A stretch of 64,000 nt of DNA from Escherichia phage vB_vPM_PD112. The notes below the pieces were generated by a model, which had not been told where the DNA came from, ran no database searches, and saw only the letters and a program-made list of their open reading frames with translations. Positions 1-48,322 of the stretch are shown one piece after another (position 1 is the stretch's first letter; every line of letters starts with the position of its first letter). The DNA is taken from the sequence record NC_054928.1; one strand, 5' to 3'. Made by a program: the position numbers and the translations under genes.

Positions 1-2709
<2,709 letters not shown>

Positions 2710-4717: not shown

Positions 4718-4729
4718 TTGATTGATTGT

Positions 4730-4743
4730 GGGGCTTCGGCCCC
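4730..4743 (+). terminator. Stem-loop GGGGC-UUCG-GCCCC downstream of gene 18
   Basis: Perfect 5-bp GC stem with UUCG tetraloop; no strong U-tract. Confidence 0.5.
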
Positions 4744-4760
4744 TATTCTCGAGGAAACAA

Positions 4761-5366
4761 GTGATTATTTCTAAGTTTGTTACAATAAAACCAAGAAATC
4801 ATTCAAAAATGTGGTCGACAATTCTAGGATATAAAGTATCATATCATGATACAGTATCTGTTCCAATAGAATTAATGCCAAAGAATAGTAATAAAATAGT
4901 TGACGCTAAATGTGATTTGTGCGGTATTAAATTTAGTAGAAGCATTCAGCTTTTAAATAGAACACCTACACATGCATGTAGAAAATGTAGCATTAAACAA
5001 GTTGCTATTAAAAATTCGGAAGTTCAATCCGGAATAAGCAGACCATGGCAAAGAGGCGATAAACACCCTCGATGGACTGGTAAAAGAAAAGAGTTTGCAT
5101 TATATGCTAGTAGAGTTCATTCTATAACTAAGTCAGCTAAAATAAGAAAAATTTGGTCAAAATGGCCGAATGCTGATAAAATAGGAGTGTGCGGTGTAGA
5201 AGGTGCTTACCAACTCGATCATAAAGTATCTATCAAATATGGATTTGATAATTTAATTCCGCCGGAAATTATAGCAAGCGTAAAAAATTTAGAAATAATC
5301 ACTTGGGAATCTAACCGAGAAAAGTCAAAAAGAAATAGCGTAGATCTTTGGGATTTACTAGAATGA
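4761..5366 (+). CDS. HNH-family homing endonuclease-like protein (free-standing, between genes 18 and 19)
   Basis: CDLCG...CRKC zinc-finger pairs and HNH core AYQLDHKVSIKYGFDN...NLEIITWESNREKS; start uncertain (GTG 4761 with GAGGAA SD, or ATG 4809). Confidence 0.65.
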   Translation: MIISKFVTIKPRNHSKMWSTILGYKVSYHDTVSVPIELMPKNSNKIVDAKCDLCGIKFSRSIQLLNRTPTHACRKCSIKQVAIKNSEVQSGISRPWQRGDKHPRWTGKRKEFALYASRVHSITKSAKIRKIWSKWPNADKIGVCGVEGAYQLDHKVSIKYGFDNLIPPEIIASVKNLEIITWESNREKSKRNSVDLWDLLE

Positions 5367-40196: not shown

Positions 40197-41784
<1,588 letters not shown>

Positions 41785-41792
41785 AATAAAAT

Positions 41793-41806
41793 GGGCCTTG
41801 CGGCCC
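41793..41806 (-). terminator. Stem-loop GGGCC-GCAA-GGCCC downstream of nrdB
   Basis: Inverted repeat just past the nrdB stop. Confidence 0.4.
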
Positions 41807-41811
41807 ACTCC

Positions 41812-42314: not shown

Positions 42315-42618
42315 CGTTATGTTCGATTGAGCTCGCTAATTCTCAACCCGTTCTCTTATGAACTGCTACATATTACTATGCAGACCAGACTATATCACAA
42401 TCCCAGAGGGATTCTCCCCATTTCGAGTCGCTTGACCCTACGTCCGAAGACTAGTCGTTGAACCTTGCTTTGCAATTGTGCATCCTCTTAAAAGTATAAT
42501 CATTTATATTATACTAATTAAAGGTGCAAGCAAAACCTTGGCTGCTAGTTTTCCTATAAAGGACTTTCCAGCAATTAAAGGAGTTTTCGATAAACGTTAC
42601 CGTTTAAAGGCGCATTTT
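42315..42618 (-). ncRNA. Group I self-splicing intron in nrdB (304 nt, no endonuclease ORF)
   Basis: Exon 1 ends ...UCUUUUGCGU; intron ends ...ACAUAACG; joining restores SFA-C-TFNFH in frame; P7-like GACUA/UAGUC pairing in the core. Confidence 0.8.
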
Positions 42619-43294
42619 ACGCAAAAGATACATAAAAACGAATAGCTTCTAAGGCATTAATAACGTGCAAACAGAGGTAAAGAGATTTCATTAAAGCACG
42701 TTTAGCTTCGGCTTCTTGTTTAATAGCTCGGTTTAAACGAAAATCAGCATCAGGAGATTCTTTAGCTAGTTCTACAAATTCTTTAGCATTTTCCCATTCA
42801 CGGGTTTTAATAAGAACATCATCATAATAACGCCCAATGGATTCAGCACGTTTCATAATAGCTTCATCTAATACAATCTCATCAAATACCTTCGATGGAT
42901 CAGTATAAAGATTTCGCATGATATGTGTATATGAACGGCTGTGAATAGTTTCACTAAAAGTCCACGTAGCAACCCATGTATCAAGGCTTGGGTCTGAAAT
43001 TAATGACATAAGTACAGCAGACGGCGCACGACCCTGAATGCTATCCAAAAGTGATTGATACTTCAGATTATTAGTAAAAATATTTTGCTGATACTGAGGA
43101 AGCTTATTAAACTGTGCAGCATCCATCATTAAGTTTACTTCTTCAGGACGCCAGAAAAATGATAAGGACTTCTCTGTAAGTTCTTCAAATACCTTATGTC
43201 GTTGAATATCATAACGTGCAATTCCAAGACCTGAACCGAAGAACATAGGTTCTGTTAAAACATCAACTGGATTTGTATTAAAAACTGTGCTCAT
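42619..43294 (-). CDS. nrdB: Ribonucleotide reductase beta subunit NrdB, exon 1
   Basis: 225 aa, MSTVFNTNPVDVLTEPMFFGSGLGIARYDIQRHKVFEEL... ending ...IRFYVSFA. Confidence 0.88.
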
Positions 43295-45610: not shown

Positions 45611-45880
45611 AAGTCCTCAACTTGAAAATCGTCTTTAAACAATCGGTTAACTATATGAGCTATTATATCACCATGACACGGCTTTGGTTTACATGTGCAT
45701 CCTAGCCTCATTCCACGTAAAGGCTCTAAATGTGCTTTAGTTATTTCTCCGGATTTAATTCGACGTATAAAATCTTTTTGAATAATTCAATGGCAGCCTC
45801 CCGGCTGCCAGCATCTTTACCGACGTAATTTCCCCCAAAATGTACCACGGTGAATATTAACATCAAAGTCGGATTTGTAT

Positions 45881-46167: not shown

Positions 46168-46479
46168 TTACACTGCCATTTTTCCTTTAATAGGAGGGTG
46201 TGATTCATAACCTTTAAGAACGAAATCTTTAGGCCTGAGTTTAAGAACATATTTTAATTGTTCTTTAGTAGAAAGATAGCGGAATTTATAAGGTAGACCA
46301 CTTATTACCAGTTCACAAAGCTCTTTAGGTTCACGACGTAAAATTTCTTTACACTGTTCTACGTGATTCATATAGATATGAGTATTACCACCAGAAAATA
46401 TCAAATCTCCTGGAATAAGATTACACATCTTAGCTACAATATGAACTAACGCAGCATATGATGCAATATTAAATGGAAG
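46168..46479 (-). CDS. td: Thymidylate synthase Td, exon 2
   Basis: LPFNIASYAALVHIVAKMCNLIPGDLIFSGGNTHIYMNH...; the called Met codon is actually the intron's last 3 nt. Confidence 0.9.
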   Translation of the reverse strand, partial: LPFNIASYAALVHIVAKMCNLIPGDLIFSGGNTHIYMNHVEQCKEILRREPKELCELVISGLPYKFRYLSTKEQLKYVLKLRPKDFVLKGYESHPPIKGKMAV

Positions 46480-46741
46480 CATTATGTTCAGATAAGGTCG
46501 TTAATCTTATCCCGGAATTATATCCAGCTGCATGTCACCATGCAGAGCAGACTATATCTCCAACTTGCTAAAGCAAGTTGTCTATCGTTTCGAGTCACTT
46601 GACCCTACTCCCTAAAGGGATAGTCGTTAGGCATTTATGTAGAACCAAAGTCCTACAATTTAGCACGGGATTGTCTACTAGAGAGGTTCCCCGTTTAGAT
46701 AGATTACAAGTATAAGTCACCTTATACTCAGGCCTAAATTA
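46480..46741 (-). ncRNA. Group I self-splicing intron in td (262 nt, I-TevI ORF absent)
   Basis: 5' splice site UUGGGU|UAAUUUAGGCCUGAGUAUAAGGUGACUUAUACUUG...; 3' end ...CUUAUCUGAACAUAAUG|CUUCCAUUU; matches the T4 td intron core minus the ORF loop. Confidence 0.88.
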
Positions 46742-47289
46742 ACCCAAGAAAACATCTACAGAACGTTGATACCACTGCAAATCCAAATAGCCATTACGCA
46801 CATTAAACTGATAGAACATGTGACAAGGCGGTAATGCCATTTGCTTAAGTTCAGCTGGATTCCATGCAGAAACAATTTGACGCCTATCATTCGGCAGTTT
46901 TTTAATACGATCAATAACTTCTATAATTTGGTCTACACCGCCAAAATCACGCCATTGTTTTCCATAAATTGGACCAAGTTCACCGCTATGATATCCTAAA
47001 TCTTTTGCTTGATTTTCGTAATTTTCATCCCAGACTGTTTTGCCTTGAATTAATGAATTATGTTGAATTAATCGCAAATCATTTACGTTAGTACTTCCTG
47101 ATAAGAACCACAATAACTCAGAAATACATGCATTCCAGGCGAGCTTCTTAGTCGTTACTGCAGGAAAACCTTTAGTTAAATCCCAACGTAATTTAGTACC
47201 GAACAAAGCAATTGTTCCTGTGCCTGTTCGGTCATCGGTTTCATAACCGTTTTCCAGGATATCTTTAATTAAAAATTGGTATTGTTTCA

Positions 47290-47290
<1 letters not shown>
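46742..47290 (-). CDS. td: Thymidylate synthase Td, exon 1
   Basis: 183 aa from MKQYQFLIKDILENGYETDDRTGTGTIALFG...; exons total 286 aa. Confidence 0.9.

Positions 47291-48322
<1,032 letters not shown>

Follow-up and report, generated by a model that had tools for sequence, protein, structure and literature searches.

The td gene for thymidylate synthase of Escherichia phage vB_vPM_PD112 is interrupted by a 262-nt group I intron at positions 46741..46480, minus strand, of the window, which is the entire stretch of 64,000 nucleotides of record NC_054928.1 analyzed here. This intron is very probably a splicing-competent derivative of the T4-type td intron without an endonuclease gene. A search for an endonuclease ORF in the intron yielded as longest result a frame of 45 codons by mechanical count, which indicates that I-TevI is absent. 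The first-pass annotation had proposed a td intron without the I-TevI gene at exactly these coordinates and of this length, flanked by exons for a thymidylate synthase of 286 aa. The T4 insertion site, the T4-like core, and the open frame of the joined exons agree with this proposal, to which the minus strand, left unstated before, has to be added.

Splice sites, exons, and ribozyme core

The 5' splice site was read as ...CUUGGGU/UAAUUUAGGCC, with the U at 46741 as first base of the intron, and the 3' splice site as ...GAACAUAAUG/CUUCCAUUU, with the G at 46480 as its last base, both on the minus strand. Exon 1 ends with ...GUUUUCUUGGGU at 46742, and exon 2 begins with CUUCCAUUUAAU at 46479. 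The splice junctions are the same as those of T4 (…UUGGGU/…AUAAUG/CU…), so that the intron occupies the canonical td insertion site. Joining of the exons (Table 1) gives an uninterrupted frame for a thymidylate synthase of 286 aa, 275 of which are identical to those of T4 Td (96% in protein), with nucleotide identities to T4 of 92.3% for exon 1 and 93.9% for exon 2. Upstream of td, a 68-aa ORF (47290..47496, minus strand) is located between frd and td and overlaps the ends of both genes. It belongs to PHROG 9550 (unknown function) and is annotated as DUF4858 in phage Shinka; T4 does not contain this ORF, and its frd and td genes overlap directly.

TABLE 1 Positions of the td exons, of intron elements, and of the intron in nrdB within the window
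Feature	Position	Strand	Evidence
td exon 1 (549 nt, 183 codons, ends ...CUUGGGU)	47290..46742	-	Translation and splice reconstruction
td group I (IA-type) intron, no endonuclease ORF	46480..46741	-	RF00028, 73.8 bits
Internal guide sequence GCCUGA (intron nt 9-14)	46728..46733	-	Rfam alignment, pairing read from the sequence
P6a hairpin UGUAGGAC-UUUG-GUUCUACA	46638..46657	-	Alignment with T4, G28, Shinka, and LH2; MFE fold
Last six I-TevI codons plus stop (UGG UUC UAC AUA AAU GCC UAA)	46627..46647	-	Mapping of the T4 ORF
P7 (GACUA / UAGUC), enclosing P7.1, P7.2, the 3' strand of P3, and P8	46548..46625	-	Pairs invariant or compensated in 8 td introns
P9, P9.1, P9.2, then 3' terminal ...AACAUAAUG	46491..46545	-	MFE fold; compensatory pairs in P9.2 of SEA1
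td exon 2 (312 nt, 103 codons plus stop)	46479..46168	-	Translation
nrdB group I intron (304 nt)	42618..42315	-	RF00028, 68.6 bits (42635..42366); splice sites

Both comparisons that the first-pass annotation had suggested as checks, with the Rfam group I model and with the T4 td intron, bore the assignment out. The Rfam model RF00028 matched the region 46751..46528 on the minus strand over model positions 1-253 of 253 with 73.8 bits (E = 7e-17), compared to a gathering score of 50 bits, and this score is far above chance. The core could be aligned with that of T4 and differs from it by four substitutions, G6U in L1, G129A in L7.1, A174G in L8, and G232A in P9.2, the last of which turns a G-U pair of P9.2 into an A-U pair.

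In P1, the end of exon 1 (UUGGGU) pairs with the GCCUGA of the internal guide sequence, with a U-G pair at the 5' splice site, and the 3' terminus of the intron is a G (...AUAAUG). The MFE fold recovered P2, P3, P4, P5, P6, an 8-bp P6a, P7.1, P7.2, P8, P9, P9.1, and P9.2, with a z value of -3.6 against shuffles, and the strands of P7, the guanosine-binding helix within the catalytic core (46548..46625), were found in the intron. Pairs were counted in an alignment of eight natural td introns or cores, using the folded structure plus P7. All 73 of the 73 proposed helix pairs form in the window sequence; across the eight introns, 98.2% of the pair cells contain standard pairs, versus 30-43% when the 3' partners were slid by 1-3 columns. 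Six pairs showed changes on both sides, from A-U to U-A in P8 of three phages, two in P9.2 of SEA1, and the remainder in P6a. P7.1 and P7.2 are present, as in the T4 td lineage (subgroup IA2). Judged by its sequence, the intron retains all core helices from P1 to P9.2, including P7, P7.1, and P7.2, with no core-defining feature of group I introns damaged. Because every defining feature that could be tested was found, the intron is assigned to the group I family and to the lineage of the T4 td intron.

Probable loss of the I-TevI gene and history of the intron

The td intron of the current T4 record comprises 1017 nt, and the 245-codon ORF of I-TevI extends over intron nt 133-870. From this arrangement, the intron in the window keeps nt 1-93 and the last 169 nt, and T4 nt 94-848 are missing. 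The deletion junction is between intron nt 93 and 94 (46649/46648), where T4 and LH2 possess 754-755 nt, and the deleted part comprises I-TevI codons 1-239 as well as the 39 nt of leader that precede the ORF. According to reviews, the promoters, the operator, and the ribosome-binding-site hairpin of I-TevI are situated upstream of the ORF (PMC2988022; PMC3073962). The stretch of I-TevI that is retained, ..W F Y I N A stop, supplies P6a with its 3' strand and also contributes to P6. This agrees with an assignment of 20 nt at the end of the ORF to P6a, P6, and P7, an overlap named “core creep” by Edgell et al. (PMC3073962). What is left of P6a is an 8-bp stem with the 4-nt loop UUUG, 20 nt in total (46657..46638), and thus smaller than the loop of “a few dozen nucleotides” assumed before. 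A search for microhomology at the junction GGACU/UUGGUUC found 1 nt in the comparison with T4 and none in that with LH2, which points to no particular mechanism of deletion. The clean P6a hairpin would also fit an intron that was never invaded by an endonuclease gene.

The td intron of phage LH2 (OQ378934.1) comprises 1016 nt and carries an intact I-TevI gene, annotated as an endonuclease of 245 aa, and both flanks of this gene are identical to the intron in the window, with 93/93 plus 169/169, or 262/262, positions, including all four of the substitutions that differ from T4. The intron in the window equals the LH2 intron minus its nt 94-847 (754 nt), and its td intron identity is 100% to LH2 and 98.5% to T4, while the introns of T4 and LH2 differ from each other at 40 positions. 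The ORF-less form is therefore nested within the diversity of the ORF-bearing forms. This indicates that the ORF-bearing state is older than the identity between the introns of the window and LH2, and that the deletion is the derived state.

The exons do not share this identity. Exon 1 of the window is 94% identical to that of LH2 and exon 2 about 74%, with the nearest exon mismatches at positions -19, -22, +9, and +12, so the intron and the exons have different histories. Moreover, all four allele combinations at the core sites 129 and 195 exist among the eight introns. Together, these two observations indicate that intron alleles were exchanged or recombined between phages, and the junction found in the window is present in three somewhat different core backgrounds. 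Such recombination blurs a simple history of a recent deletion from LH2. A survey of T-even introns by Sandegren and Sjoberg in 2004 reportedly arrived at a picture of a “recent transfer of old introns,” which fits an exchange of intron alleles.

A survey of td introns in related phages, also suggested by the first-pass annotation, showed that shortening of the intron is not an isolated event. The td region was matched by 641 records of the phage collection, about 230 of them with the intron and the rest intronless. An intron was scored as shortened when both halves of the 262-nt query were joined across less than about 630 nt; this applied to about 36-37 of the approximately 230 intron-bearing records (about 16%), with at least six different junctions (Table 2).

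TABLE 2 Classes of shortened td introns in T4-like phages
Intron length	Phages	P6a region
445 nt	G28, F1, 112	ORF or leader fragments kept (G28)
319-320 nt	Shinka, HP3, PYps55T, MLP2, and others	Leader start plus 3' end of the ORF
315 nt	Klebsiella EI	Deletion between GGAAU repeats; ORF or leader fragment kept
262-263 nt	CE1, 215Ecol030PP, BYEP01	T4-type stem plus UUUG loop only
254 nt	N2, CJY920, 236Ecol005PP, HMD-9, GRNsp7	Different mini-P6a, GUUC-UUUU-GAAC
250 nt	SEA1	Different mini-P6a, GUUC-GAAA-GAAC (GNRA loop)

The introns of the other classes (G28, Shinka, EI, N2, SEA1, and so on) are the same intron at the same site and have likewise lost the endonuclease, but their junctions differ, and what the class of the window retains is the complete T4-type stem of P6a without other remnants. 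The 4-bp mini-P6a of N2 and SEA1 does not result from a simple deletion in a stem of the T4 type. This multiplicity of junction classes (445, 320, 315, 263/262, 254, and 250 nt) indicates that I-TevI was lost many times and that the ribozyme was always kept intact. Within the phage collection, the junction of the window was present only in CE1 and 215Ecol030PP, as found by a 28-mer search, and in BYEP01, all of which are independently isolated, viable phages. CE1 (ON229909.1) is a close relative, with 98-99% identity to the window and indels in BLAST, and the td introns of both are 100% identical. The CE1 record splits both td and nrdB into two separate genes without an intron feature and mislabels exon 2 of nrdB as “major capsid protein.”

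A scan of the JGI metagenomes for the td junction gave 0 matches. In IMG/VR, an 18-nt junction sequence occurred in five contigs, which do not contain td and possess an unrelated terminator hairpin, AAAGGUAGGACUUUGGUUCUACCUUUUUU, following a structural gene. In these uncultivated myovirus-like contigs (L013-L017), the P6a 18-mer GTAGGACTTTGGTTCTAC forms the stem-loop in what appears to be an intrinsic terminator (AAAGGTAGGACTTTGGTTCTACCTTTTTT), and since the contigs represent one homologous family, the recurrence of the 18-mer is consistent with chance. A gapped scan of IMG/VR for a td-like core with a short P6a retrieved seven further contigs (L019-L025), none with thymidylate synthase flanks. 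They contain ORF-less group IA introns with about 74% identity to the td core and assorted short P6a hairpins, located in genes of uncultivated phages other than those for thymidylate synthase.

Evaluation of the deletion has to consider that the 262-nt form might be the ancestral ribozyme instead, never invaded, and that I-TevI was inserted later into the UUUG loop of P6a in introns of the T4 and LH2 type. The identity at 262 of 262 positions with the ORF-bearing LH2 intron, including its four diagnostic core substitutions, makes this quite improbable, as does the existence of several other short td introns that are demonstrable deletions with remaining ORF fragments. The form is also very rare, as it occurs in three records of the phage collection and was not found in IMG/VR or in the JGI metagenomes. 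An ancestral state would, on the other hand, explain that no I-TevI-specific nucleotide is left and that a tidy loop of 4 nt closes the P6a stem. It would also agree with the related ORF-less group IA introns and their small P6a hairpins in other genes of uncultivated phages, with the differing mini-P6a (GUUC-UUUU/GAAA-GAAC) of the td introns of N2 and SEA1, and with the view in reviews that the ancestors of group I introns had no ORF (PMC3073962). The probability of an assembly or sequencing artifact that collapsed a full-length intron is practically negligible. The same junction was obtained in independently sequenced phages from China and Poland, the window shares the intron with CE1 despite the differences between both sequences, and no repeat able to cause a collapse is present.

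If the deletion or the four substitutions had abolished splicing, td would be a pseudogene and the phage would use the thymidylate synthase of its host. The td gene of T4 is not strictly essential on thyA+ hosts, which would allow such a situation. A dead intron is nevertheless highly improbable because no core pair is broken, the substitutions being located in loops or strengthening a pair, and because the exon frames remained uninterrupted and encode a protein 96% identical to that of T4. In LH2, these four substitutions coexist with an endonuclease gene that is intact and presumably maintained. Moreover, engineered td introns without the ORF in the P6a loop splice efficiently. The T4 td intron is also in use as a cassette of targetron markers, where it is called “efficiently self-splicing” (PMC3898094). 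A splicing-competent intron that lost its endonuclease by deletion is the preferred interpretation.

Proposed biology of the intron and comparison with known systems

As such an intron, the td RNA would fold, splice with guanosine as cofactor, and join ...GGGU to CUUCC..., leading to a td mRNA that should encode the 286-aa thymidylate synthase. The intron lacks the 755 nt of the P6a loop that carry the leader and codons 1-239 of I-TevI in T4, so that neither autonomous, self-initiated homing nor ribosome traffic into the ribozyme core would be expected. Translation into the core has been reported to impair td splicing when translation of I-TevI is deregulated (PMC2988022). The intron probably persists because only a precise excision would restore td and a small, efficient ribozyme should be cheap.

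The intron interrupts the recognition site of I-TevI, and the td allele should for this reason resist cleavage by the I-TevI of a co-infecting phage. A target site interrupted by its intron is insensitive to the respective homing endonuclease. The recipient that is cleaved by I-TevI is the intronless allele (PMC2988022). If another phage supplied I-TevI, the intron might be copied passively into such a cut intronless allele by homing in trans. Mobilization of defunct phage introns in trans is known from the MobE-driven homing of the nrdB intron (PMC2790892). Both steps, immunity and mobilization in trans, are proposed on the basis of the knowledge of T4. Selection may have kept the intron for two reasons, as a “vaccination” that destroys the I-TevI target in td and would thereby shield the surrounding genes of nucleotide metabolism from marker exclusion when an I-TevI-positive phage co-infects, and as a way to avoid the cost of ribosomes entering the core. 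The clean 8-bp stem and tetraloop would then be a selected optimum among numerous conceivable deletions, but this reading is rather doubtful.

When compared to the T4 td intron with its I-TevI gene (group IA2; 1016-1017 nt), the gene, the insertion site, and the helices are the same, and the differences are the four core positions and the 755 nt missing from the P6a loop; the 754 extra nt are the only difference from LH2. The td ribozyme without the ORF of the P6a loop has also been used in the laboratory, in deletion constructs and in the retrotransposition-activated markers of targetron and ClosTron systems. In contrast to these, the intron in the window is natural, with a junction that does not stem from a restriction-site deletion and with four substitutions of natural origin. 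The annotation of the Klebsiella phage EI labels the short td intron of this phage “intron of plasmid pMTL007C-E2.” The nrdB intron of T4 with its defunct I-TevIII, mobilized by MobE (Wilson & Edgell 2009, PMC2790892), likewise outlived its endonuclease and depends for its spread on an outside nuclease, but the td intron of the window possesses neither a remnant of the endonuclease nor a neighboring free-standing homing gene. Collaborative homing (cited in PMC2988022) combines a group I intron lacking an ORF with a free-standing endonuclease next to it. The td intron of the window is likewise ORF-less and located in a conserved phage gene, but no endonuclease adjoins it.

Endonuclease-less introns of T-even phages and the identical sequence of CE1 were already public. 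This intron is not a new kind of element, and it reveals no new mechanism. It represents a genuine though expected late phase of the selfish-intron life cycle, in which the endonuclease has decayed and the intron is retained. It provides a natural equivalent of the ORF-deleted td ribozyme of the laboratory and a clear snapshot of how the life cycle of homing endonucleases proceeds in T4-like phages, from invasion and fixation to endonuclease decay and intron retention. The junction classes form a natural series for asking about a gain in splicing and Td expression, about mobilization in trans, and about protection against I-TevI. Recognition of such mini-introns would also correct public annotations, as for td and nrdB of CE1.

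The nrdB intron and nuclease genes of the window

The intron in nrdB has 304 nt, versus 598 nt in T4, and its removal gives a NrdB protein of 392 aa. Compared to T4, 292 nt are missing between two copies of the 7-nt repeat ACAATTG, in contrast to the td deletion. The start of the ORF leader, the Shine-Dalgarno sequence, and the ATG are kept, and the remnant of I-TevIII is deleted; the search for an endonuclease ORF in this intron found only an ORF of 10 codons. The earlier statement that td and nrdB both contain introns without their endonucleases is therefore correct. An intron was present in 118 of 885 nrdB records of the phage collection, in most cases with either the complete I-TevIII gene or a remnant of the T4 type. 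The short form is rare, with CE1 and CJY920 among the matches listed, and short td and short nrdB introns occur together in at least these two phages (CJY920 with a td intron of 254 nt). The nrdB intron is at the same stage as the td intron, and the presence of two endonuclease-less introns in one phage is the expected outcome of the decay of endonuclease genes inside retained introns.

It had also been stated that endonuclease genes occur elsewhere in the window, and this applies to one credible homing-type nuclease gene (713..1333), which is located inside a split intein of gene 17. In contrast, denA (41374..41808) encodes a GIY-YIG enzyme of DNA degradation and not a homing endonuclease, and mobE and segG, the homing genes neighboring td and nrdB in T4, are absent from the window. 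The gap between nrdA and nrdB comprises 51 nt, without mobE or nrdB.1, and that between genes 32 and 59 comprises 99 nt, without segG. No free-standing homing endonuclease gene was found in the frd-td-nrdA-nrdB region, and a regular-expression search of the ORFs of at least 90 aa, which is a weak test, gave no N-terminal GIY-YIG motif. With no endonuclease inside, the td intron does not, strictly speaking, count as a mobile intron, and with no adjacent one, it does not belong to a collaborative-homing pair.

The 270-nt gap between nrdA.2 and nrdA was considered as a possible remnant of the free-standing GIY-YIG gene of N2 and LH2. This was ruled out by its similarity to nrdA.1 of T4, with the region 45611..45880 (minus strand) being 98% identical over 342 nt, with one indel and frameshifted. 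The only ORF in this region has 41 codons (45741..45866), so that it is either an apparent pseudogene or results from a homopolymer sequencing error, and the region is unannotated in CE1 and Shinka as well. In N2 (record L005, 2324..3055) and LH2 (record L010, 3239..3970), a free-standing GIY-YIG gene (“I-TevI”-like) replaces nrdA.1 on the opposite strand, about 0.6 kb downstream of td; this gene is absent from the window. Its position beside the ORF-less 254-nt td intron of N2 may represent a collaborative or trans-homing arrangement.

Gene 17 for the terminase large subunit (1..2706, plus strand) displays a “fractured gene” arrangement, a split intein with a free-standing nuclease gene, as described by Dassa et al. 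2009 from metagenomes, including one gp17-like locus (PMC2677866). An insertion of 1020 nt (about 626..1641) is located at Cys257 of gp17, directly following the MIYIDE motif. The N-terminal piece of gene 17 extends to 747, with the frame ...IDE followed by 41 residues and a stop and with the N-intein fragment starting with CVAKDTKV.... The nuclease ORF in between encodes 206 aa and is PD-(D/E)xK/TnsA-like (Pfam TnsA-like), with a match to an endonuclease PHROG at E = 1e-102. The ORF of the C-terminal piece starts at 1321, and its intein part ends with ...NNVESHN/CAFIPNF; this C-intein of 107 residues matches the consensus atypical split intein CatC (PDB 6dsl_B, E = 6e-12). The possibility that the insertion is a group I intron was ruled out by the intein termini, which are in frame, and by an Rfam search that gave no match at E < 1. 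Of 666 related phage records, only 15 contain the insertion.

Between genes 18 and 19, at the “19.1” position, an ORF of 214 aa (4722..5366, plus strand) gave no Pfam match. It belongs to PHROG 5104 (unknown function) and faintly matches a homing-endonuclease PHROG (E = 8e-4), and may thus be a degenerate or novel mobile nuclease.
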